Shown: positions 6,601-28,518 of the stretch, piece after piece
Position numbering within the stretch: position 1 is the first letter of the stretch
Layout: each line of letters starts with the position of its first letter
Assembly: GCA_016188455.1 (NCBI GenBank)
Contig: JACPHR010000010.1
Span: 3,655 to 67,654 of the forward strand
DNA length: 64,000 nt
Source of the DNA: Candidatus Tayloriibacteriota bacterium
GTDB taxonomy: Bacteria > Patescibacteriota > Minisyncoccia > Phycocordibacterales > SIBU01
Reading direction: 5' to 3'
The notes under the pieces: generated by a model
Seen by the model: the letters and a program-made list of their open reading frames with translations, nothing else
Database searches by the model: none
What the model was told of the DNA's origin: nothing
Position numbers and translations under genes: made by a program

Positions 6601-9600
6601 TTTGCTCGGCCATCGGTCCGAAACCGGGGATAAACGAGTTGACTTTCCAGGTGGTTGGATTGGCCGCAGTTCCATCCACATAAAGCGTGTAGTTGCCGGT
6701 GGAAGAATCAGTCATGGCATCGGCGCGGCCCGGGCCGTCGGTGCGATAGGCGAAGACCGGCGCGTTGCCCACTGGGTTAGTGCCGTCCGTCACTTGGCCG
6801 GTGATGGTGTACCCCGGCTTGACCATTTTAAGGATGAAAGGATTGGCGCCGCTTGAACCGGTGGAGGCGGTCGGAGAACCGTCAATATAGAATACGTCAG
6901 TTCCGGATGAGTCCATGACTACCGTTACTTTTTTGGATTCGCCGATACCGGGCGAGTAAGCGCCAACCACATAGGAACCGGCCACCACTTTAATGGAGAA
7001 CGTTCCTGAAGTTGAAGTTTGGGTGTTGCCGCCCAAACCGCCGCCGCTATCCGTGTTGGGCGAGAAAGCGAAGACCATGGCGTTCGCTATGGAATTGCCG
7101 CTGCCGTCTTTGAGCACGCCGGAGATGGTTTTATTGGCGGTGGAAATCGTAAAGGTATTTGATGTGGTCGCGAAGCTGTTAACGCTTGATACGCAAGCGC
7201 TTGGACAGCCGGTTACCGTCACATTTATCGCTTTTGGCATAGACCAATTCGGCATGGGAGGCGGGCCACTGAAGCCGCCAGATGTGCCTTTCGGCATGGC
7301 GGGTCCGATACCGATGCCCCAGCTGCCGTTAAACTGCGGAATGGGAATGACGGTCAGAGTTGAAGCCGTCAGAGCCGAAGCGCCGGGCGTAACGGTGCGC
7401 ACCACGAATTGTCCGGGACCGCCGGCGAAGACGTCCACATTTTCGGTCGCCGTAAAGGTATTGGCCGCCGCGGTCAGCCTGACCGTGAAGTTAATGGCGG
7501 ACGAGGTCGCCGTCAGCGCAAAGTTCCTGGTGATGATGGAAGAAGAGGTAGCCTGCACCGGCGTGGGCATGGTGTTGCCGAAGAAGGCGGTGGTAGTAGC
7601 GCCATCGGCATCGCTTACCCCGCTTACAAACGGGTCAGTAAAGAGCATGTAGTGGCTGCCGCCGCCGAAATTGTTCGTCAGAAACTGCGAACCGACAGGC
7701 AGGTTGGAGAAGGTGAAGAGGCCGGTTGAGTCAGTGACGGCGTCAATCGGTCCGGTCTGGGGAGACATTAGGTGAATGGTCGCTCCCGTCAAGTTGCCGC
7801 CGTTGCCCGAAACTGTGCCTCGGATAGTGGTCACCGCTCCGCCGCCGGCCGCGCCGCCGCCGATGTAGATGGGATTGCCGCTGAACGACTCAAGAAGCGT
7901 GCCGTCCGATTTCTTTGATTTAATGTCAAGCACATAGCCGGAGCTGTCCATGCCTTTCGGAATGGAAGGATTGACCATGTCCGCGAGCGAGAATTTAAGG
8001 AAATCATGTTCATCGTTGCCGCTCTTCCTGGTGCCGGTAATGCCGGAACCGGTGGCCTTGAGCGTCAAGGTGATGGTCTTGGCAGTCGAGCTCGTCGCGA
8101 TAGCACTGATGCCGATAGTGCCGTCGCTTGAGCCGTTGATATCGCTGTTGACGGAGGCGAGGAAGGGATTCTTGGCAGAAGTGGTGGCGACGCAACAAAG
8201 GCCAAAGTCGGAACTGGAAGGGAGGGTAATCACGATGCTGCCGCCGTCGTCAATCTGTTTGGCAACCGGAAGCTCAAAGGAATAGGTGGAAGAGGCGCTG
8301 ATGAAGCTGGTAGAAGGCCTGATTGAGACGGGGGGCATGAAGCCGATGCCCGAAGCGCTGAAATCCTTAATCTCGCCGAAGGTGGTGCCGGTAAAGCTTC
8401 CGGGGCCCACAAATCCGCCGGTGCCGCCGGCACCGGTGGCCGAAGAAACGGTGCAGGAACCGCTCATGGGCGCCGTAGTCGTCAAGTTCCCCGACATGTC
8501 CTTAATGTTTGTCGCCGATACCGTAACGGCGGCGCCGGAGGTAAGGCGGAGCCCCGAGAGTTTGGCTGTGCGGGTGCTTTCATCATAAGTAAGAGTGTGT
8601 CCCGCCAGCGCCGAAAGCGTCTGGGCTACTCCGCCCACCGTCAAGGTGTAGTTGGCAAGGGTGGTAGCGTCGGTTTTATTAACTGCTTCGCTGAAAGTCA
8701 CAGCGACCGTGAACTCGTCGGCGTTGACAAAGAGGATGGCCGGCCCGCTGATATCGCTGTTGGCCGCCTCAACCGTCCATGACCTGGTGACATTCGCGGC
8801 CAGAGCCGTGCCGGAAATATTTTTGAGCGCGCCGCCTTTGAGAGTCAGAACTATCGTTTGGCCGACAGGCAGCACGTTGCTTGCCGTGAAGTGGCCCTCT
8901 TTGGAAACCGGGTCGTAGCGAACGCTGCCGGGAAGGTTGGCCCCGCCGGAAATGCCCAGAGTGACGGCTCCGGAGGTGGCCGTGGCTGAGTCAATGTTGT
9001 CGTCAAAGGTGAAGACAAAGTCGTTGGTGTTTGCCGCGATGGTCGTGCTTGGAGTCGGCAATACGCCCACAATCGTCGGTGCCGTGGCATCCGTGCTGCC
9101 GCCAGTGGTAAAGGTGGTGGTGTATGCCGTTGACAGGGCAATGCCCTGGAGAGTGCGCACGCCGGTCCCGACAGTGAGAGTGTATTGGGTGTTAGCGGCC
9201 ACAGTCCCGCGAATGCCCGCTGAAAGGATATTTTTGCCGGTTGAAGTGCTAAAACTGAAACTGCCAAGCGTCAGGCCACCGGAGAGAAAAATGTTGGTGT
9301 TGGTGAAGGTCGTGGTGTCCATCGTTGACTGGTTGAACTCAATCGTGGTGGTGCCTATATTAGTCGGCACATTCTGCGAGCCGCGGAAAGGCGAAGCTCC
9401 CATGACCGCCGGCGGCGTCACGTTGGCCGAGGTAAAACCGGCCGCGCCGGTGGTAAAGGTCGCGGTATAAGACTGACTGCCCGGCGTAAAGCCGTCTTGG
9501 TCCAAAGCGTTGCCGGATAGGTCATAGACGTTTGAAGTAACGGTGAAAGTGTAGGAAGTATTGGCCGACAGAGAAGCGGTCAGGTTGCATTTGGCGGACG

Positions 9601-16412: not shown

Positions 16413-18683
16413 ATGAAATTATTGATCGTTGAATCGCCGGCGAAGGCGAAAACCATTTCAAAATATCTGGACGGCCTGCCTGCGCCTGCCGGCGCGAAAG
16501 CAGGCGGGCAGGCGGGCCGGTACATCGTCAAGGCTTCCGTCGGCCATGTCCGCGACCTGCCAAAGAGCAATAAAAACGCCATTGACATTGAGGGCGGCTT
16601 TGTGCCCCATTACGAAATTTCCAAAGGCAAGGAAAAGGTGGTCTCTGAGATAGAGGCTTTGGCCAGGAAGGCGGACACCGTGCTCTTGGCCACCGACCCC
16701 GACCGCGAGGGCGAGGCCATTGCTTGGCACTTATCCGAGCTTATAAAGGATAAGCTCGGAGAATCACGAATCAAGAATCACGAATCAAGAAGACCGATAC
16801 AGAGGGTGGTGTACCATGAAATAACGAGGGAGGCCATAAAAGAGGCTTTGGAGCATCCGCGAGACATTGACGAAAACTTGCGGCGCGCTCAGGAGGCGCG
16901 GCGGGTTTTAGACCGTCTCGTCGGCTACGACCTCTCCGGCCTGATTTGGAAAAAAGTGCGCTACGGCTTGTCCGCCGGCCGGGTTCAGTCTCCGGCTCTG
17001 CGCATTTTGGTGGAACGGGAGCGGGAAATTCGCGCCTTTAAGCCGGAAAAATTTTTCGTCATCAGCGCGGAAGTGGAAAGCAAAACCGGCGGTCGGTTCA
17101 TGCTTTTCTGCGTGGCAGAACCGCGCGACAAAGGGCTGGTGGAAAAAATCCTGGCGGCGGGCCGGCGCGAAGATTGGGTCGTTAAAGAGATTGCCGAAAC
17201 CGAAGCCAAGCGAACGCCGAAGGCGCCTTTCATCACCTCCACTCTCCAGCAAACCGCGAGCTCGCGGCTGGGATTCGCCCCCTCGCGCACCATGGGCATC
17301 GCCCAAAAACTTTACGAAGCGGGACTGATTACCTACATGCGCACCGACAGCACCACTTTGTCCGCCCACGCCCTGGCCCAAATCGGCCCGGCCATTCTGA
17401 AAAAATTCGGCGCCGGCCTCCACCAAAACCGGGTCTTCGCCAAAAAAAGCAAGAACGCCCAGGAAGCCCACGAAGCCATCCGCCCGACCAATCTTTCTCT
17501 GGAATCCGCCGGCGCGGGAAACGAGGCCCGCAAGCTCTACCGTTTGATTTGGCAGAGGACAATCGCCAGCCAAATGATTGACGCCAAAATTTTACGAAGC
17601 AAGATTACTGTCAGGGTCGGCACGGGCCCCTCGCCTGCGCTCGGGGCAAGCGAAATTCCGGACTTTGCCGTGGGCGGCTCGCGGTTGCTTTCCCCCGGCT
17701 GGCTCTTGGCCGACCCCGAAGCGCGGGGCGAGGATGTTGAACTGCCGAAAGTTTCCTTGAACGAAAAACTAACGCTCCTTCAACTGAAAACGGAAGAAAA
17801 AGCGACGGAGCCGCCGCCGCGCTACAGCGAAGCGGGTCTGGTCAAAGAGCTTGAGAAGCGCGGCATTGGCAGGCCCTCAACCTACGCCTCCATCCTCAAA
17901 ACCATTGAAGACCGGGGCTACGTGACCAAAGAAAACAAAGCCTTGAAACCGACGGATACCGGCGAAGTGGTCAGCGGCTTTCTGGAAGACAATTTTCCGA
18001 CTTACATTAGCGACAATTTTACCGCGGAGATGGAAGACAAACTTGACGATATCGCCGTAGGAGCGCGTCAGTACGAAAAAACTCTTGAGGAATTTTATAA
18101 ACCCTTCCATAAGGAAGTAAAAGCCAAGGAAAAGGCGGAAAAAGCCACCAACCTTGGAGAAGGCCCGAAAGAATTTTCCTGTCCGGTCTGCGACGGGCCC
18201 ATGATTATAAAACTCGGCAGGAGTGGAAGATTTTTAAGCTGCGCCAAATTCCCCGATTGCTTGGGCGCCCGCGCCATTGACGGCAAGGAACTTGAAGGGC
18301 CGAAAGAAACCGGCGAACTCTGTCCGGAATGTAAAACCGGCAAACTGGTTGAGCGCGACGGCAAGTTTGGCCGCTTTATCGCCTGCTCCAATTATCCGAA
18401 ATGCAAATATGTCAAGAAAGACGAGGCGCTGGAAAAGCAAAACTCAACCGGTGTCCTCTGCCCCGTCTGCAAGGAAGGCTTCATGACCGAGCGCCGCGGC
18501 CGATTCGGCCTTTTTTACAGCTGTTCCAACTATCCCAAATGCAAAAACGCCATCAAAGCCAAACCGACCGGAGCGCTCTGCCGCCTCTGCGGCGCGCTGA
18601 TGATGGAAGGCACGAAAACCATCCCCGAAAGATGCAGTAATAAAACTTGTGCCAACCATAACCCCCACAAACTCGCGAAGTAA
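16413..18683 (+). CDS. topA: DNA topoisomerase I with C-terminal zinc-ribbon repeats
   Basis: MKLLIVESPAKAKTISKYL Toprim N-terminus. Four Cys4 zinc ribbons at the C-terminus. An in-frame ~15-aa insert (LPAPAGAKAGGQAGR) is encoded by a GC-rich palindromic element. Confidence 0.95.
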   Translation: MKLLIVESPAKAKTISKYLDGLPAPAGAKAGGQAGRYIVKASVGHVRDLPKSNKNAIDIEGGFVPHYEISKGKEKVVSEIEALARKADTVLLATDPDREGEAIAWHLSELIKDKLGESRIKNHESRRPIQRVVYHEITREAIKEALEHPRDIDENLRRAQEARRVLDRLVGYDLSGLIWKKVRYGLSAGRVQSPALRILVEREREIRAFKPEKFFVISAEVESKTGGRFMLFCVAEPRDKGLVEKILAAGRREDWVVKEIAETEAKRTPKAPFITSTLQQTASSRLGFAPSRTMGIAQKLYEAGLITYMRTDSTTLSAHALAQIGPAILKKFGAGLHQNRVFAKKSKNAQEAHEAIRPTNLSLESAGAGNEARKLYRLIWQRTIASQMIDAKILRSKITVRVGTGPSPALGASEIPDFAVGGSRLLSPGWLLADPEARGEDVELPKVSLNEKLTLLQLKTEEKATEPPPRYSEAGLVKELEKRGIGRPSTYASILKTIEDRGYVTKENKALKPTDTGEVVSGFLEDNFPTYISDNFTAEMEDKLDDIAVGARQYEKTLEEFYKPFHKEVKAKEKAEKATNLGEGPKEFSCPVCDGPMIIKLGRSGRFLSCAKFPDCLGARAIDGKELEGPKETGELCPECKTGKLVERDGKFGRFIACSNYPKCKYVKKDEALEKQNSTGVLCPVCKEGFMTERRGRFGLFYSCSNYPKCKNAIKAKPTGALCRLCGALMMEGTKTIPERCSNKTCANHNPHKLAK
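16473..16518 (+). mobile_element. in-frame GC-rich palindromic mini-element (family E-like) inside topA
   Basis: ggcctgcctgcgcctgcc..gcaggcgggcaggcgggcc, an inverted repeat of the CCTGCC/GGCAGG type also seen at 23614 and 57688. It encodes an insertion absent from canonical TopA N-termini. Confidence 0.45.
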
Positions 18684-18821
18684 ATTTGGGAGCACGCAAC
18701 CTGCGTTGCGTGCGCAAGGGGTTTTCGTGAGGCGGAGTCATGTTTCGTCAGCGGACGAAACGGACGAGCCGGGGTCGCGAAAAATCCTGCTCGACGGAGC
18801 AGGGTTTATTTGTGACCGAAG
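18684..18821 (+). repeat. family A structured repeat unit (3 hairpins, 138 bp) inserted at the topA 3-prime end
   Basis: Homologous to the three tandem units after tRNA-Lys (40271-40676). Conserved linkers gcgcg.ggcggag and gacgagccggggtcg. Compensatory changes keep the hairpins intact. Confidence 0.6.
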
Positions 18822-18887
18822 ACGATTCCCGAACGTTGCTCCAACAAAACATGCGCAATGCACAACCCTCATAAACTCGCGAAGTAA
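18822..18887 (+). repeat. displaced duplicate of the last 66 nt of topA
   Basis: Translates to TIPERCSNKTCAMHNPHKLAK*, against the in-gene TIPERCSNKTCANHNPHKLAK*. About 80 percent nt identity; the differences are mostly synonymous. Confidence 0.6.
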
Positions 18888-22025: not shown

Positions 22026-22224
22026 ACGCTCGTCAAGGCGACCCACCCAACTCGCTGCAGACGCATCTGCGTCGAAGCGGGCGGGAGTCAGGTAGGCAAA
22101 ATCACGCGGGGCAATCTATGAGAGTTTGATCCCCTCCTCGCCCACCACTTGTGCTAGATTTTCTCCCGCGTCACCATCCCCACGTGACTACTGCTCAGTT
22201 CACAAGCAAGATTAATTCCCCGCT

Positions 22225-22258
22225 CTTATATTCTAATTCGCGCGAATTAGAATATAAG
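22225..22258. promoter_or_regulatory. 34-bp perfect palindrome (ArsR-type operator copy / bidirectional terminator) downstream of arsR-like gene 1
   Basis: cttatattctaattcgcgcgaattagaatataag. Confidence 0.5.
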
Positions 22259-22268
22259 AAAAACAATG

Positions 22269-22529
22269 CTATAAAACCTTCAGCACTGATTGAATGACTG
22301 CGGGAGATTTGCCATTCAGAAAATAGTAAACCTCAAGAGCCTGCTGGCGCTTGTCCAGAATATCAGCGCGAGAGAGTATATTGAGATGCTTCGAGGTCGA
22401 GGTGAATGACAGTTTAATCTCATCGGCGATTTCTCCCACTGTTGCCTCATGTTCCTTTTTCAGAAATGCAACAATGGCAAGACGTCTGCGATTCGCCATG
22501 GCTTTCAATACTCGCTCATATTCTTTCAT
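22269..22529 (-). CDS. ArsR/SmtB-family winged-HTH transcriptional repressor (paralog 1)
   Basis: 86 aa. RLAIVAFL..TVGEIADEIKLSFTSTSKHLNIL motif. 69 percent identical to the paralog at 23659. Confidence 0.7.
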   Translation of the reverse strand: MKEYERVLKAMANRRRLAIVAFLKKEHEATVGEIADEIKLSFTSTSKHLNILSRADILDKRQQALEVYYFLNGKSPAVIQSVLKVL

Positions 22530-23658: not shown

Positions 23659-23919
23659 TTAGAGAACAGAAATAAGATATTTAATAACAGGCACTTGTAA
23701 GTTGGTGATTTTATAAAACATTTGAAGGCTGACTTGCTCTTTTTCAAGAATTTCTGCGGCACTTAGAATAAGCAAATGTTTAGAAGTTGATGTGAAAGAA
23801 AGCTTGATGTTCTCTGCAACTGCACCAACTGACGCGACTTTCTTTTTCTTGAGGAAAGCCAGAATCGCTAACCGTCTTTTGTTCGCCACTGCCTTCAATT
23901 GTCTTTCGAGTTTTATCAT
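23659..23919 (-). CDS. ArsR/SmtB-family winged-HTH transcriptional repressor (paralog 2)
   Basis: 86 aa. RLAILAFL..SVGAVAENIKLSFTSTSKHLLIL. Confidence 0.7.
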   Translation of the reverse strand: MIKLERQLKAVANKRRLAILAFLKKKKVASVGAVAENIKLSFTSTSKHLLILSAAEILEKEQVSLQMFYKITNLQVPVIKYLISVL

Positions 23920-23937: not shown

Positions 23938-23969
23938 TTATTGTCTAATTCGCGCGAATTAGACAATAA
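23938..23969. promoter_or_regulatory. 32-bp perfect palindromic operator upstream of arsR-like gene 2
   Basis: ttattgtctaattcgcgcgaattagacaataa, about 20 bp upstream of the start. Confidence 0.55.
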
Positions 23970-23992: not shown

Positions 23993-24154
23993 GGCGGGAG
24001 CTGGAGGAATCGGTCACAACTCTCGTTCTCCCGTCGGAGAACTCGGTCGCGACCCCGCCTCGTTCTCGCTCGGAACTCGCGAGATACTCCGGCTTCCGCT
24101 TCCTCTCGCGACCCAAGCAGTTGGCTCGCTCAACTCCCCATTCGGCCGCACTCA
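23993..24154 (-). repeat. family B element (~140 bp) plus 21-nt duplicate of the tRNA-Trp 3-prime end
   Basis: ggcgggagctggaggaatcgg at 23993-24013 repeats 24155-24175. The intervening sequence is ~70 percent identical to 28317-28442. Confidence 0.55.
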
Positions 24155-24228
24155 TGGCGGGAGCTGGAGGAATCGGACCTCCGACCGACGTTTTGGAGAC
24201 GTCCATTATGCCACTTAACTAAGCTCCC
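24155..24228 (-). tRNA. tRNA-Trp (anticodon CCA), CCA encoded
   Basis: Acceptor GGGAGCT/AGCTCCC. Anticodon arm GACGT-cTCCAaa-ACGTC. Atypical T-loop TCCGATT. Confidence 0.75.
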
Positions 24229-24290
24229 GGTGCGAGCAATATAGCACAAAAGGCGCGGGTTGCCAAAAAATAACCTCGCCCGGAGAGGGA

Positions 24291-24449
24291 TTATTTTTTG
24301 GCTTCTTTGTGCGGTGTCCGCGCGCGACACCATTTGCAAAATTTCTTGAGCTCTATCTTGCGCTCTACCTTCTTCTTGTTCTTTTCAGACCAATAGTTGG
24401 TGCGCTGACACTGGGAACAATTGAGCTTTATAAGTCGTTCCTGGCTCAT
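24291..24449 (-). CDS. rpmG: 50S ribosomal protein L33
   Basis: 52 aa, MSQERLIKLNCSQCQRTNYWSEKNKKKVERKIELKKFCKWCRARTPHKEAKK. Two CxxC pairs form the zinc ribbon. Under 60 aa, so absent from the ORF track. Next to tRNA-Trp, as in many bacteria. Confidence 0.75.
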   Translation of the reverse strand: MSQERLIKLNCSQCQRTNYWSEKNKKKVERKIELKKFCKWCRARTPHKEAKK

Positions 24450-24531
24450 ATGCTAGTTGGTAAGTTAATAACTTGGCACGTCTGTAAGTTTTAAGAGAAA
24501 CAGAATATAGCAGAAAACCACAGAAAAGAAA

Positions 24532-24561
24532 AGGCCTGAACTCGCAAGCGAGTTCAGGCCT
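24532..24561 (-). terminator. rho-independent terminator of the 24584 gene
   Basis: aggcctgaactcgc-aa-gcgagttcaggcct, followed by a T-run on the minus strand. Confidence 0.6.
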
Positions 24562-24583
24562 CACAAACACAACTTTAGCCTTT

Positions 24584-25711
24584 CTAGCCTTTTCCGGGAG
24601 TGGTGGTATTGTCCTCGGAGGGCACATGGTGCCGCTCACGATAATTGCGGCCGAAGTCGGGGTCTTCCCAATCATCCAAGATGATGTAGTAGAGTCCAGC
24701 ATCCAATTCCCCGGAAACCGGAGCGCTCTCGGAAGTGGAAAACTCTCCGAGAAAGCGACCCTTGCCATCAAGGAGCTGTCCTTTGCAGGCGTGAGTCAAA
24801 ATTTCAACCTGCCCGTTCACAAACCGATATCCCGTTGAAGGGAATATCGTCACTTTTAAACGTGCCGTGAACAGAACTGGCTGAACGAACTGCGGCGATG
24901 TTTCTTCTGCTTCGCCGCGGATTTCGCTCGGGTTCACAAGCAAGGGTCGGAAATTGGCGAAGGCGACGTTCGCCGTACCGCTGACCCGCTCCGGAGTAAC
25001 GAGTACTCCGCCGCGGAAGGTATCCTCGTGATATCCGTCCGAGTCCTGCACGAAGACCGAGAGCTCTCCGTAGCTATCCTCAAACTGGCCGCTGTCACGA
25101 TACTCCTCCACATTGCCGATGAGACCGACCGGGAACCTGATTTCTCCGTCAACGACGGGAATGTTTACTGTGCGGATGATGAAGCCTTCCTTCGTTTTCT
25201 GAACGAAGCGGGCCCACGAAGCGCCTTGGTAGGCGAAATAGACTTCGTCCACAATGCGCGGCTTGATCTTTCCCGCAACGAGGCGAAACCGACCCAATTC
25301 GGCCGGCACCACATACGCCGCCTCCGAGCCGTAAAAGAGCTGGCGCCCTTTTCGGTCAAAGAGGTTGAGGTACGCGTAGAGGCCATTCGTATCGGTGATA
25401 GCGAAGTCAAGCACGGCCGAGCCGAGCTTATCCGCAATTGTCTGGTGGTTCGCTCCGGTAACGTCCTGCGACAACAACACCTGCACATAGTTAGTGTTAT
25501 TGGAGTTTTCGGAGAGATTTTCCCCCCAGACCCCGACTTGACCCTGACTCGCCTGGTTAAGCGCCCACACCCAGAGCTGTTCAATATTCCGAATGGGCAA
25601 CTGGCTGGGCGCGCCTCCTCCCCCGCCGCCTCCGCCGGAACTTGAGGTTTGAGCGCTGGCCGCAAAGGCGATGCACATCGCCGACACGACTACTGATAAT
25701 ATGGTCTTCAT
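24584..25711 (-). CDS. secreted hypothetical protein (375 aa) with signal peptide and poly-Gly linker
   Basis: MKTILSVVVSAMCIAFAASAQTS signal peptide, then GGGGGGGG. No known catalytic motif. Confidence 0.6.
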   Translation of the reverse strand: MKTILSVVVSAMCIAFAASAQTSSSGGGGGGGGAPSQLPIRNIEQLWVWALNQASQGQVGVWGENLSENSNNTNYVQVLLSQDVTGANHQTIADKLGSAVLDFAITDTNGLYAYLNLFDRKGRQLFYGSEAAYVVPAELGRFRLVAGKIKPRIVDEVYFAYQGASWARFVQKTKEGFIIRTVNIPVVDGEIRFPVGLIGNVEEYRDSGQFEDSYGELSVFVQDSDGYHEDTFRGGVLVTPERVSGTANVAFANFRPLLVNPSEIRGEAEETSPQFVQPVLFTARLKVTIFPSTGYRFVNGQVEILTHACKGQLLDGKGRFLGEFSTSESAPVSGELDAGLYYIILDDWEDPDFGRNYRERHHVPSEDNTTTPGKG

Positions 25712-25758
25712 TTTCTACTTTCCTTTCTTTCCTTTGTTTTTGGTTTACGGTTTTTGGT

Positions 25759-26016
25759 TTAGGGCTGTTTACGACTCGGCACCAACGACACAGATACTCC
25801 CTCCATGCGGACATGGTAGAGACCGTCGTTTGTCCCGACCGTGTTGGTTTTGGTTTCCGCGACGGGCTCGAAAACCGGGCTTTCAGCCAATGACCGAATC
25901 GTAACCGACTCGGTCGGAGGCGAGTGAACCGCTTGAGGTTGAGGTTGTTGAGATTTTTCTGTCAGTATTGCTAAAGACAGAGTCACAAATATAAGGCAAC
26001 CGAGGAGCTTCTTCAT
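25759..26016 (-). CDS. small secreted protein (85 aa)
   Basis: Signal peptide MKKLLGCLIFVTLSLAIL. Likely co-transcribed with the 24584 gene. Confidence 0.45.
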   Translation of the reverse strand: MKKLLGCLIFVTLSLAILTEKSQQPQPQAVHSPPTESVTIRSLAESPVFEPVAETKTNTVGTNDGLYHVRMEGVSVSLVPSRKQP

Positions 26017-26145
26017 TTGGTTTAGGACTTAGGTAGTTATTTAACTGTCGAACAACGAAGGCAATTTTCCAAAACTGCCAATAAAAATAAGGGTTTTCAC
26101 CCTCACTTTTTTCCGGTGCTATTGTAAGCTATAACTCTTAGTCTG

Positions 26146-27342
26146 TCAAGTGAAGATTCTTTTGATGAGAGGGTTGATACGGGTGACAATTTCATAACAT
26201 GACGAGTCGGTGAGAGCGCCCAGCTCCTCTGCGGTAATTTTTTTGCCCATGATAGTAACTTCGTCGTGAAGGGATACGCCTTTTATATCAGTAACGTCAA
26301 TCGTAATCATATCCATGCTGACGCGGCCTATGACCTTTGCCTGCCCGCCGACCTGCCCGTTCGCGGAACGCAGGCGGGAGCCGTTTCGGCGCAGGCGGGA
26401 CATTTGACCTTGAACAATAACCCGGCCAATTGAAGAGAGAGCGCGTGGATAACCATGCCAGTAACCGACGGGCACGATGGCCACTTTGCTTTCCTTGTCC
26501 AAGGTTTCGGCAAGGTCGTAGCCGATGCGGCTTCCCTTTGGTAATTTTTTTATTTCAGTAATAATTGATTTCCAGACCAACGCCGGCTCGAGCGAAATCT
26601 TTTTCTTTAGAAATTCTTTTACTTCAGCGGCCGGCCAAAGACCGTAAAGGCCGATGCCGATGCGCACCATGTCAAAGTGAGACTCGGGAAGAAGCATGCA
26701 GCCTGCGGTGGCGGCGGCGTGCGCCATCGGCCGCATCCCTTCTTTTTGAAAGGCCGCTATCCATTTCTTAAATTCCGCGAGCTGGGCAAGCGTGTCTTTC
26801 GGGAAGGCGGGATTTTTCGCGCTGGCAAAATGCGTGTAGAGTCCCTCAACAACTATTTTTGCATTTTGAGTTTTGATTTTTGATATCAGGGTTTTTTGCT
26901 GCCGCAGCAAAAAACCCTGGCGGTGCATACCGGTGTCCACTTTGATGTGAACGCGTAGGGGCTTGGAAAAGTTTTTACTGTTTGCCGCGATATATCGTAT
27001 TATTTCAAAAGAGGAAACCGTAATAGAAATGTCATTTGCCGAAGCCGCCGCGACCATTTCGGGCAGAGTGTAGCCAAGTATCAAAATGGGCAGTTTGATT
27101 CCCTCTCGCCTTAAAGCCAGGCCTTCCGTGACCGAATCAACGCCGAGAAAATCCGCCCCGAGTTTTTCCATCTCGCGCGAAAAATCAATAAGCCCGTGGC
27201 CGTAGCCGTTGCTTTTGACCACCGCCATCAACTTGGTTCGCTTCGCAATGAGCTTCTCAAAAACGTTAAAATTGTGCTTGACGGCCTTTCGGTCAACTTC
27301 AATCCAGGTGCGCAAACCTTTGTGGGCGGTTTTGCTTCGCAT
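26146..27342 (-). CDS. alr: alanine racemase
   Basis: PLP site VVKSNGYGHG. C-terminal GRVSMDMITIDV. Start taken at Met13 (ATG 27342). Carries a GC-rich in-frame insert (GQMSRLRRNGSRLRSANGQVGGQ) with a duplicated cgcaggcggga. Confidence 0.85.
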   Translation of the reverse strand: MRSKTAHKGLRTWIEVDRKAVKHNFNVFEKLIAKRTKLMAVVKSNGYGHGLIDFSREMEKLGADFLGVDSVTEGLALRREGIKLPILILGYTLPEMVAAASANDISITVSSFEIIRYIAANSKNFSKPLRVHIKVDTGMHRQGFLLRQQKTLISKIKTQNAKIVVEGLYTHFASAKNPAFPKDTLAQLAEFKKWIAAFQKEGMRPMAHAAATAGCMLLPESHFDMVRIGIGLYGLWPAAEVKEFLKKKISLEPALVWKSIITEIKKLPKGSRIGYDLAETLDKESKVAIVPVGYWHGYPRALSSIGRVIVQGQMSRLRRNGSRLRSANGQVGGQAKVIGRVSMDMITIDVTDIKGVSLHDEVTIMGKKITAEELGALTDSSCYEIVTRINPLIKRIFT

Positions 27343-27398
27343 GAGGATAATATTATCTAAAATGAAAAAAAACGCCAATGGAAAACTCTCATTAGTGT

Positions 27399-27436
27399 TA
27401 TTCTACCATCTTGGCGATCGCCAAGATGGTAGAATA
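27399..27436. promoter_or_regulatory. 38-bp perfect palindrome (family G) downstream of the wHTH/Cas2-like gene
   Basis: tattctaccatcttggcgatcgccaagatggtagaata. Confidence 0.5.
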
Positions 27437-27457
27437 GCGTTTCAACCTTCTTCAAAT

Positions 27458-28057
27458 TCAAATGACGGGCCGAAGAGTTCCAGTTTGGCCAACCTGAAAA
27501 ATTTCAACGCACTTTATGAGGCGCAATCTGTATAAATCGTCAAGAAATTCCTGGGGAATTTTAACTCTTCCCATCCAAAAACTTTTTTGCACCATCTTCA
27601 GACCCAAATGCTTAAGCGCCTCGCGCAACCAGTCACGCTTTCTTTTCTCCTTTTGTGGGACGTCAAAAGCCACGATGGTTAAATGCTCACCCGACTGCCG
27701 TGGATACTCTATCAAAGGAAACCGGGCTGAAATTTGCAACTTCAGTCTGCGTTCGGCGTCTTTTCCGCGAGCAGTGATTGATAACAGTGTTTTATCGGCA
27801 TTTTTGCTTATGGCAATCAAACCGTCATGCTTTAACTTTGAAATCAATTTCTGGTATCTCAGTACAAGCTCTTTCTCTCCTACTGGAAGAGGGCGTTTAT
27901 TACTCCTCTTCTTCTGCCTTTCTCTGAGAACATAGCGGATTCTTCCCGGCGACGCGCCGTATCCGGCAATAAGAATGGCTTCGCACAGTTCTAGAGATTC
28001 TACTGCCATTTTACCGAGTGTCTGAAGAATATAAAGTGTAATGTGTCCTTTTTTCAT
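27458..28057 (-). CDS. winged-HTH + Cas2/VapD-like-fold C-terminal domain protein (PaaX-like architecture), paralog 1
   Basis: C-terminus HLTIVAFDVPQKEKRKRDWLREALKHLGLKMVQKSFW follows the Cas2 pattern (b-strand ..YDV, R..L...L...G..Q.SV.). N-terminal wHTH-like region. The paralog at 56238 shares IV.FD.PQK....RD.LRE.L..L....LQKS. ATG start, with a tataat box immediately upstream. Confidence 0.45.
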   Translation of the reverse strand: MKKGHITLYILQTLGKMAVESLELCEAILIAGYGASPGRIRYVLRERQKKRSNKRPLPVGEKELVLRYQKLISKLKHDGLIAISKNADKTLLSITARGKDAERRLKLQISARFPLIEYPRQSGEHLTIVAFDVPQKEKRKRDWLREALKHLGLKMVQKSFWMGRVKIPQEFLDDLYRLRLIKCVEIFQVGQTGTLRPVI

Positions 28058-28074
28058 TATAGTATTTTGTTATA

Positions 28075-28108
28075 TTCTACTAAAAAGGCGATCGCTAAGA
28101 TAGTAGAA
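28075..28108. promoter_or_regulatory. family G palindrome (imperfect copy) in the promoter region of the wHTH/Cas2-like gene
   Basis: ttctactaaaaaggcgatcgctaagatagtagaa, 18 bp upstream of the start codon. Confidence 0.45.
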
Positions 28109-28168
28109 AAACACTTTAGCGAGGGAAAAGTGGAACATTTTAAGTACTGCTCGCCATCTCAAATTTTG

Positions 28169-28252
28169 TGCCGAGGGTGGGACTCGAACCCACACGGTCT
28201 AAACGACCCCGAGATTTTAAGTCTCGTACGGCTACCATTACGTCACCTCGGC
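28169..28252 (-). tRNA. tRNA-Leu (anticodon TAA), long variable arm
   Basis: Acceptor GCCGAGG/CCTCGGC. Anticodon loop cTTAAaa. Variable stem GGTC/GACC. Canonical T-arm GTGGG-TTCGAGT-CCCAC. Confidence 0.85.
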
Positions 28253-28297
28253 AAAAAACTTGGAAGGACAAACGCATCTCCTGATTCCGCTTGCATG

Positions 28298-28442
28298 AGG
28301 CCACGGTGGGACTTGGTTACAGCTCTCGTCGCGCCGTCGCGCTCCTCGGCCGCGACCCCGCCTCGCTGCCGCTCTGAAACTCGCGGCGTGCTCCGGCTTG
28401 CAATTCCACACGCACGCAAAGCAGTTTGCGTGCTCGTCGCCT
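28298..28442 (-). repeat. family B element (~126 bp) plus 19-nt duplicate of the tRNA-Cys 3-prime end
   Basis: gaggccacggtgggacttg at 28298-28316 repeats 28444-28462. The insert is homologous to 24014-24154. Confidence 0.55.
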
Positions 28443-28518
28443 TGGAGGCCACGGTGGGACTTGCACCCACGTATAACGGTTTTGCAGACCGCTGCGTTGC
28501 TATCTTCGCCACGTGGCC
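28443..28518 (-). tRNA. tRNA-Cys (anticodon GCA), CCA encoded
   Basis: Acceptor GGCCACG/CGTGGCC. Anticodon arm GCGGT-cTGCAaa-ACCGT. Atypical T-loop TGCAAGT. Confidence 0.75.

Follow-up and report, generated by a model that had tools for sequence, protein, structure and literature searches.

The window analysed here is a stretch of 64,000 nucleotides (nt) from a Candidatus Tayloriibacteriota bacterium of the Patescibacteriota (contig JACPHR010000010.1, positions 3,655 to 67,654 of the forward strand), in which ARAGORN and the Rfam covariance models called seven tRNA genes. Two of these, tRNA-Trp(CCA) and tRNA-Cys(GCA), both on the minus strand, are each followed directly on the 3′ side, on the tRNA strand, by a GC-rich element that we assign to family B, and then by a copy of the tRNA's own 3′ end. 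For comparison we used a covariance model, R1, built from 51 B-type copies, 49 of which come from other genomes. In the window it found six copies: the two B elements, one copy near the topoisomerase I gene topA and three behind tRNA-Lys.

The tRNA-Trp gene (24155-24228; ARAGORN, and 57.4 bits in Rfam) encodes its CCA end and has the T-loop UCCGAUU, in which C55 replaces U55. Its element occupies 24013-24154 (R1 match 23999-24110, E = 8e-23). Read on the minus strand, it consists of a block antisense to the acceptor (24131-24138), a first hairpin, hp1, with a CUGC loop (24108-24129), a guide (24095-24107), the block AGCCGGAG (24087-24094), a second hairpin, hp2 (24065-24083), the block CGAGGCGGG (24054-24062), the 5′ strand of a helix P3 (24046-24053), a third hairpin, hp3 (24025-24042), and the 3′ end GUUGUGAC (24013-24020). 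This is followed by an exact repeat of tRNA-Trp nt 56-75 (23993-24012), the first ~9 nt of which form the 3′ strand of a helix P1. When C24013, which corresponds to C55, is included, 23993-24013 and 24156-24176 are identical at 21 of 21 positions (tRNA-Trp nt 55-75). A promoter-like site lies ahead of tRNA-Trp (24266-24238, minus strand) and a promoter and terminator scan found no terminator-like site between the gene and its element, which makes co-transcription of the two plausible.

The tRNA-Cys gene (28443-28518; ARAGORN and Rfam) has the T-loop UGCAAGU, with G55, and a D-loop without G18G19. Its element (28316-28442; R1 match 28302-28414, E = 4e-19) has the same parts in the same order, again on the minus strand: anti-acceptor block (28435-28441), hp1 with a CUGC loop (28412-28433), guide (28399-28411), AGCCGGAG (28391-28398), hp2 (28368-28387), CGAGGCGGG (28357-28365), 5′ strand of P3 (28349-28356), hp3 (28331-28342) and the 3′ end GCUGUAAC (28316-28323). 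The exact repeat of tRNA-Cys nt 56-74 lies at 28297-28315 and equals 28445-28463 at 19 of 19 positions. Other element-bearing tRNAs with a UGCAAnU T-loop (L012, L078 and L095) likewise have no G18G19, as if the tRNA "elbow" had co-varied, and element-free relatives have a canonical tRNA-Cys.

An exact direct repeat of 19-21 nt inside 170 nt is unexpected by chance (about 170 x 4^-19 by hand arithmetic). The first-pass annotation of this DNA had described the two segments as related stretches of ~130 nt, about 70 percent identical, each carrying a tRNA-end duplicate. The duplicates are indeed exact, and aligning 24013-24154 with 28316-28442 gave 80% mean column identity. The two elements have AAGCCGGAG, CGAGGCGGGGTCGCG and GAGAGyTGTrAC in common. 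In single-sequence folding both window copies were only weakly better than shuffled sequences, and the structural argument below therefore rests on covariation and not on folding energy.

To sample the family, metagenomes were scanned with the pattern AAGCCGGAG-N(15-45)-GAGGCGGGGTCGCG. The element occurs, always on the tRNA strand, at 120 or more metagenome loci and in one Saccharibacteria genome. Among the matches listed, a same-strand tRNA lies directly upstream in 95 of 121 contexts, 8 further contexts are broken by a contig end, and 19 tRNA isotypes are represented. Several of the remaining contexts are tRNAs interrupted by group I intron-like sequence (for instance L029, L049 and L112), so that ARAGORN misses them. 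Group I introns in Patescibacteria tRNAs are among the nearest published work, which is not about an element of this kind (PMC13011429). In an exact-pattern scan of species-representative genomes, a true relative was found behind the tRNA-Val of a Saccharibacteria metagenome-assembled genome, with a 34-nt duplicate; the other four of the five matches were due to chance in GC-rich genomes and had neither a tRNA nor a model match. A looser pattern applied to viral contigs gave 16 matches, all of them false, none beside a tRNA and none supported by the model, and thus no evidence of phage carriage among the contigs scanned.

In Rfam 15 only the seven tRNAs of the window reach the gathering score. 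The elements have no Rfam 15 match up to E = 10, self-cleaving ribozymes, group I and II introns, IS605-orfB motifs and tRNA-like RNAs included. By eye, we saw no resemblance of the core to hammerhead, twister, hepatitis delta virus-like ribozymes or group II domain V. No description of such an element was found in a full-text literature search. The two window segments are copies of a non-coding element which is widespread among Patescibacteria, lies behind tRNA genes and, as far as Rfam and the literature search tell, is undescribed. We rate it as lying outside the known kinds, with its mechanism read from sequence alone.

The copies were anchored on their invariant blocks so that the order of parts could be compared. 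On the tRNA strand, hp1 (loop usually CUGC) is followed by the guide, (G)AAA, the segment GCC-GGA-GCG...hp2...CGC-GA-GGC and GG; then come GUCGCG...hp3...YGUGAC and the tRNA copy, which begins at C56. The core can thus be written as a three-way junction, GAAAGCCGGAG-hp2-CGAGGCGGG-GUCGCG-hp3-YGUGAC. The guide, 10-20 nt long, reverse-complements the T-loop and the 3′ strand of the T-stem in the adjacent tRNA; it is antisense to nt 54-65, and in some subfamilies reaches nt 74. The subfamily that includes both window copies has a second block, upstream of hp1, antisense to the 3′ strand of the acceptor, and other subfamilies have a contiguous guide of 14-20 nt.

RNAalifold, applied to the anchor-based alignment of 88 non-redundant copies, returned the three-way junction. 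In it the guide pairs with the first 9-10 nt of the downstream copy to give helix P1, P2 is the invariant GCC/GGC stem with a 3x2 GGA/GA internal loop, and P3 closes hp3 by pairing with the last six nt of the element (GUCGCG...YGUGAC), with a fixed G-U pair. Covariation was tested on a MAFFT alignment of 51 copies. Paired cells amounted to 92.8%, compared to 79.1% in shuffled alignments and 32-41% when the partners were slid, and double-sided changes numbered 210 against 72.5 in shuffles. Positions in P1 alternate between AU, UA, CG and GC according to isotype. The wobble pairs G74-U111 (51/51) and G76-U109 (39/51) would be C-A mismatches if the other strand were folded, which indicates that the tRNA-sense strand is the folded one. 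On this evidence the elements are conserved, covarying and strand-specific structures, not degraded scars, scars having been one of the two options of the first-pass annotation.

The guide covaries with every isotype. Moreover, the two nt between P1 and AGCCGGAG complement tRNA positions 55 and 54, two positions that the downstream copy does not include, C56 being preceded there by ..AC. Between tRNA nt 54-55 and guide, the pairs were TT/AA at 72 loci, TC/GA at 4 and TG/CA at 3. The window holds exceptions, namely the C55 of tRNA-Trp, which was scored in this count, and the G55 of tRNA-Cys with a guide ending in GCA, which was read from the sequence. The match of a guide to its own tRNA thus includes nt that lie outside the duplicate. 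At 87 of 92 loci the guide is complementary to the tRNA over at least the length that it is to the copy, a result expected even under neutral decay. An origin of the guide as a "pseudo-tRNA with insertion" was rejected, as non-palindromic T-loops show the reverse complement and not a direct copy. In L148 hp1 can be continuous with the guide-tRNA pairing; fold-back synthesis of the guide is not general, since hp1 interrupts the guide in other subfamilies.

Junctions were analysed at those 64 loci where 12 nt or more are repeated exactly. The copy started at C56 in 47 of them, and in 38 it ended within -2 to +3 nt of the tRNA 3′ end. The first-pass annotation was thus right that the duplicate is a copy of the tRNA end; its start, described there as simply the last ~20 nt, is however not arbitrary, as throughout the family the copy begins at C56 of the T-loop and runs to the 3′ end. 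Exact duplicates reach up to 64 nt, and the longer ones belong to tandem arrays (L006, L114, L118 and L096) or extend into the trailer and terminator of the tRNA, as in L004, L035, L102 and L111; between the two terminators of L102, and likewise of L111, most differences are in the hairpin loop. CCA is present in the copy only where the gene encodes it, which indicates that copies derive from DNA or precursor and not from mature tRNA. An origin from a primer-binding site or mature tRNA was rejected because of these CCA-less copies and since guide pairing is weakest at the 3′-terminal part. Further sites, a second class, are at the acceptor end, GGGUC/CAC.. in L032, L047 and L062 and GGGCG/CAC in tRNA-Lys (the slash marks the junction), again with matching guides. 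That the duplicate usually ends at the gene end, in tRNAs as well as in topA, may mean that selection keeps only insertions that restore the gene, or both copies may be orthologous sequences that can be aligned only where they are constrained.

The locus rbfA-tRNA-Cys-tRNA-Leu(taa) is conserved in relatives, which allowed us to compare the spacer between the two tRNAs. To judge by its RbfA homologues, the window organism is a bacterium of the Parcubacteria/Paceibacteria type. In the window it measures 190 nt and contains the B element and the copy. The check for empty sites that the first-pass annotation had asked for found some: the spacer is element-free in L146 (33 nt), L153 (35 nt), L148 (58 nt) and L144 (80 nt). 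In L142 it holds an unrelated insert (265 nt). The element copies behind tRNA-Lys(CUU) number three in the window, two in L146 and one in L148; at tRNA-Leu(tag) only L148 has the element, the sites of the window and of L146 being empty. A downstream processing signal present in all relatives, the alternative that had been named at the outset, is therefore not what these loci show. Tandem arrays occur in L006, L114, L118, L096 and L054. L144 has no intact copy and retains behind tRNA-Trp a decayed 3′ end (..CGACGAGTATTGTGAC adjoining CAATCCCGC, 8540-8600), from which it appears that copies also decay. No very recent polymorphism was caught, since the contigs from the same strain, L150-L152, do not differ from the window. 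Groundwater samples, for instance SRR12113419/22/31, contain the window strain.

Compared with the window, L144 has a different gene order from the tRNA-Cys/Leu cluster to tRNA-Trp/L33: L33, a gene of 381 amino acids (aa) and alanine racemase are inverted and miaA adjoins rbfA. A look-up of the exact L33 protein of the window returned no record. Element-bearing tRNA clusters may be rearrangement breakpoints. In L153 a LAGLIDADG-type open reading frame (ORF) lies between rbfA and tRNA-Cys (1982-2700).

Family A, which the first-pass annotation had thought to be a relative of family B, is represented by four copies in the window. All four were found by the B-built model (topA copy, E = 2e-16; three tRNA-Lys copies, E = 7e-12 to 5e-10), which confirms that relationship and unites A and B in a single superfamily. 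The P3 of family A is GUCGGG/CCUGAC, which compared with B is compensatory. The three tandem elements behind tRNA-Lys(CUU) (40272-40674, plus strand; R1 matches 40301-40418, 40436-40554 and 40577-40683) are inserted at the acceptor 3′ end. Past them, 40675-40770 (plus strand) holds remnants of further elements (..CTTAGTAACTTGTGAC adjoining TCTAAAATCCAAC) and, at 40751-40764, the partial T-arm and acceptor copy of tRNA-Lys GAATCCAACTGGGC, which looks like accretion of old insertions.

The fourth family A element lies near the 3′ end of topA (18684-18816, plus strand; R1 match 18714-18830). Its insertion site, GGCA/CGAAAACC, is T-loop-like, its guide GGGGUUUUCG matches the upstream copy at 8 of 8 positions, and its fold has a z-score of -5.3. 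The last 23 codons of topA are present twice, in a first copy at 18613-18683 and a displaced second copy at 18817-18887 (plus strand). Of these codons 12 differ synonymously, 1 differs non-synonymously and 10 are identical, and over the 78 nt compared the differences are mostly at third positions. Such mostly synonymous differences require that both copies evolved under protein-level selection, in different genomes, and hence that the upstream copy and the element arrived together by recombination. The topA copy thus agrees with an element that supplies the replacement 3′ end itself, and the duplicated terminators of L102 and L111 bear the same signature. The window tRNA-Cys, with G55 and without G18G19, resembles the tRNA-Cys of the element-bearing L078 and not the canonical one of its closest relatives, which points the same way, to an element and the upstream gene part arriving together.

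A third type, family C, was found by repeat search behind tRNA-Tyr (39648-39784, plus strand), where R1 gave only a weak match (E = 0.16). A hairpin precedes the guide GGGAUUCGAA, as in B, with the loop GGGU in place of CUGC; the core differs from that of B and ends in ..CUGUACUGAAGCGGUACGC, with the ending pattern ..CUGUACUGAA-N-GUA-N. The segment is ~118 nt long and is followed by a copy of 19-20 nt (nt 54-72, 39765-39784) whose first nt is U54. L036, L084 and L123 have this core type too, the latter two in tandem with a B copy.

Next to this we searched for an enzyme. All-against-all clustering of the 2,667 ORFs from all loci returned housekeeping families and only sporadic LAGLIDADG and helix-turn-helix (HTH) ORFs. 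Pfam scans of the 148 ORFs nearest to the elements revealed no recurrent integrase, reverse transcriptase or transposase. Large serine recombinases accounted for 2-3 of the 148; phage-integrase, reverse-transcriptase and Nop-domain families were not among the 25 commonest Pfam families listed for these ORFs, and no TnpA (Y1 HUH) was seen among them. We recognised no integrase and no other mobility gene in the ORF list of the window, in which Pfam scanning covered eight ORFs. The PaaX/Cas2-like gene beside the window tRNA cluster was rejected as a partner, as it is near elements elsewhere in 1 of 120 loci among the matches listed. As far as the sequences tell, the element does not encode its catalyst. 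Candidates would be a single-strand transposase or a recombinase supplied in trans, an enzyme of the host, or catalysis by the RNA.

We consider it somewhat more probable than the contrary that these elements are a family of non-coding, non-autonomous, site-specific mobile elements which reside in the 3′ trailer of Patescibacteria tRNA genes, and in which the internal antisense guide across the bond between nt 55 and 56 sets the target. In the mechanism we propose, the element, probably single-stranded and either transcribed together with the tRNA locus or copied from it, would pair its guide with the sense strand of the tRNA gene across the 55/56 bond, and its 3′ end ...GUGAC would be joined to C56. 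A second copy of nt 56-76 would arise upstream, either by fill-in of a staggered break ending just past the gene or because the element carries it. The tRNA would stay intact, and only insertions with a duplicate reaching the gene end would survive, while the displaced 3′ fragment would remain downstream as the 3′ strand of P1. As the target would be regenerated, insertion could be repeated, which would explain the tandem arrays. For spread between genomes into the same gene, homology would be supplied by the gene and, as a built-in right arm, by the displaced copy, and this could account for upstream and downstream copies that differ only at neutral positions.

The more far-reaching claim, that the elements are a new class of nucleic-acid-guided mobile element, is one we put forward tentatively and hold to be rather doubtful. 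Such an element would be a structured RNA or single-stranded DNA module of ~100 nt with a programmable guide of 10-20 nt, inserting at 55/56 of a guide-matched tRNA gene or a T-loop-like sequence and leaving the gene intact by means of the duplicated 3′ end; it may be RNA-catalysed or use a small host or trans factor of these reduced genomes.

Several observations weigh against mobility of this kind. No enzyme was identified, and the mechanism is derived from anatomy. Among the loci compared we found no near-identical genome pair differing by one insertion, for which reason gain and loss, and a filled-in and a carried upstream copy, are not separable. The exact 23-nt core pattern used for sampling favours intact copies. 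In about half of the loci the copy is recognisable only for its first 7-12 nt, with guide and core intact. This indicates that constraint acts on guide, core and P1 and spares the distal copy, a sign of purifying selection on the RNA over a long time, which would fit a host-useful RNA as well as a selfish one. Closely related cores stand behind different tRNAs, each with its own matching guide, a retargeting for which the proposed mechanism does not account. The guides in the window have 2-3 mismatches to their own tRNAs, although the duplicates are perfect. The guide behind tRNA-Cys is a better match to the loop UGCAAUU, which L012 has in its tRNA-Met, than to the UGCAAGU of its own tRNA; this suggests jumps to near-cognate T-arms. 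Finally, group II introns, and hence their reverse transcriptases, were undetected in 95 complete Patescibacteria genomes (PMC13011429), which speaks against a retro-mechanism.

The main rival, which we regard as unlikely, is a resident functional RNA, that is, a tRNA-linked guide RNA kept by the host that pairs with nt 54-65 of the T-loop and T-stem. It would, for example, direct modification or processing at U54, U55 or C56 or control tRNA folding; the downstream copy would be a cis competitor that keeps the guide closed, and mobility would be only apparent, through recombination and loss. Such a role would agree with a core, guide and P1 that have kept their integrity and complementarity at loci where the copy is otherwise decayed, with the covariation of the guide with tRNA nt 54-55, with a guide that ends exactly at the universally modified positions 54-56 and with the conserved GGA/GA internal loop of P2, which is of a kind bound by proteins. 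In Pyrobaculum, C56 is methylated by a C/D guide RNA. Box C/D-like guided systems in bacteria belonging to the candidate phyla radiation have been raised as a possibility (PMC12045711), which would again favour a resident RNA. However, only some tRNAs per genome carry the element and close relatives lack it at the same tRNA; there are tandem triplicates, a copy inside the end of topA and a decayed remnant, and the consensus has neither C/D or H/ACA boxes nor an Rfam match. In bacteria, moreover, U54 and U55 are modified by stand-alone enzymes.

A retroelement resembling a short interspersed element (SINE) is improbable. By this account target-primed reverse transcription would proceed into a nicked T-loop, and a target-site duplication varying in length would result from a second nick beyond the tRNA end. 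Of the two ends of the duplicate, the fixed one does abut the 3′ end of the element and the variable one its 5′ end, the core is structured like an RNA, and the 5′ region is variable. Against this, no reverse transcriptase family is among the commonest listed for the 148 nearest ORFs, there is no A-rich or other priming tail and no shared 3′ tail, and the divergence of the topA copies and terminator loops would need an extra recombination step. The reported lack of group II introns in Patescibacteria (PMC13011429) counts against it as well.

The reading of the first-pass annotation, tyrosine-integrase miniature elements or deletion scars of islands, in which the duplicate would be the attL/attR identity block of a T-loop crossover, we consider very improbable. 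A repeat that runs from the T-loop to the 3′ end is the classical signature of tRNA-targeting integrases, and it is what we find here; the topA copy also acts like an element that supplies a replacement 3′ end, and large serine recombinases do occur among the neighbouring ORFs. The observation that one element type occupies independent tRNA targets was correct, and was extended to 19 isotypes among the matches listed, plus topA. The same extension makes an integrase with one att specificity unlikely, as one conserved core stands behind all of them. Furthermore, no integrase was linked to the loci, the viral-contig matches were all false, and the left side of the junction (..YGUGAC), as read from the sequences, is unlike the T-stem half-site of a symmetric core site. 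Arm-type sites do not explain a covarying, strand-specific fold with an antisense guide, nor does an integrase model predict an internal antisense segment matched to its own tRNA. Also rejected were TIGR-Tas arrays, which have a different architecture (tandem 36-nt units next to a Nop-domain gene; PMC12045711), and box C/D or H/ACA guide RNAs, as the consensus has no RUGAUGA/CUGA or ACA boxes.

Taken as guided mobile elements, the copies share traits with several known systems. Like tRNA-targeting integrative elements (tyrosine-integrase islands and derivatives of the cis-mobilizable type), they insert in the 3′ part of a tRNA with a repeat from the T-loop to the 3′ end, a second copy of the 3′ end keeps the gene intact and, as at topA, the copies can differ in lineage. 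They differ in measuring only ~130 nt, in having no linked integrase, one core for 19 isotypes, an internal antisense guide and a strand-specific fold, and in lacking symmetric core-type sites. A resemblance to the insertion sequences IS200/IS605 and to their non-autonomous derivatives, the palindrome-associated transposable elements, is possible: strand specificity and hairpins, which may count as subterminal at both ends, are present, the junction lies after N54N55, which may correspond to insertion 3′ of a short motif, and cleavage sites would be read by internal pairing, here of AA with T54T55 and of GUC with the terminal GAC. The pairing is however of 10-20 nt and not 4, the target copy follows the element, which is atypical, and neither TnpA or TnpB nor an Rfam IS605-orfB match was seen.

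With group II intron homing (through exon- and intron-binding sites) and IS110 bridge RNAs they would share the choice of target by pairing between element RNA and DNA across the insertion point, and an orientation fixed relative to the target strand. In contrast to those systems they have no intron domains, intron-encoded protein or recombinase gene, the pairing is almost wholly 3′ of the junction, and the 3′ part of the target is duplicated. Like MITEs (transposable elements of the miniature inverted-repeat kind) and SINEs, they are small, non-coding, multi-copy and non-autonomous, with a target duplication at the flanks. Unlike in a MITE, the hp1/trailer and ..YGUGAC ends are not inverted repeats and the length of the duplication is not fixed, with only 7-11 nt retained at many loci; unlike a SINE, they have no tRNA-derived promoter head, 3′ tail or partner retroelement.

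Other repeats were noted around these tRNA genes. Near-identical palindromes at 22225-22258 and 23938-23969 (..CTAATTCGCGCGAATTAG..) lie upstream of paralogous genes for ArsR-type HTH proteins of 86 aa (22269-22529 and 23659-23919), each just downstream of a tRNA and its trailing element. Behind tRNA-Leu(CAA) lies a GC-rich segment (22026-22147, plus strand) that ends in a tRNA-like acceptor and T-arm with CCA (about 22079-22147, GGGCGGG...GAGTTTGATCCCCTCCTCGCCCACCA); neither ARAGORN nor Rfam called it, and it may be a pseudo-tRNA or another element type. A different palindrome of ~34 nt, TCTACnATCnTGnCGATCGCCnnGATnGTAGA, occurs three times (27401-27434, 28075-28108 and 39804-39835); two copies flank the PaaX-like gene with a Cas2-like domain (27458-28057) and the third stands just after the tRNA-Tyr copy.

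Even on a modest reading, the elements are an abundant conserved RNA structure that is missing from Rfam, with six copies in this 64-kb window alone. They explain the GC-rich blocks and pseudo-3′-ends behind Patescibacteria tRNA genes, affect tRNA annotation and assembly, and may bring about rearrangements and the replacement of tRNA genes in genomes as reduced as these. The defined GUGAC/C56 junction, the defined guide and the natural variants provide an experimental handle. If the guide does select the site, the element would be a new, very small system, protein-free in cis, for programmable site-specific DNA insertion, with a design that repairs its own target, and it would come from a phylum with hardly any known mobile elements.

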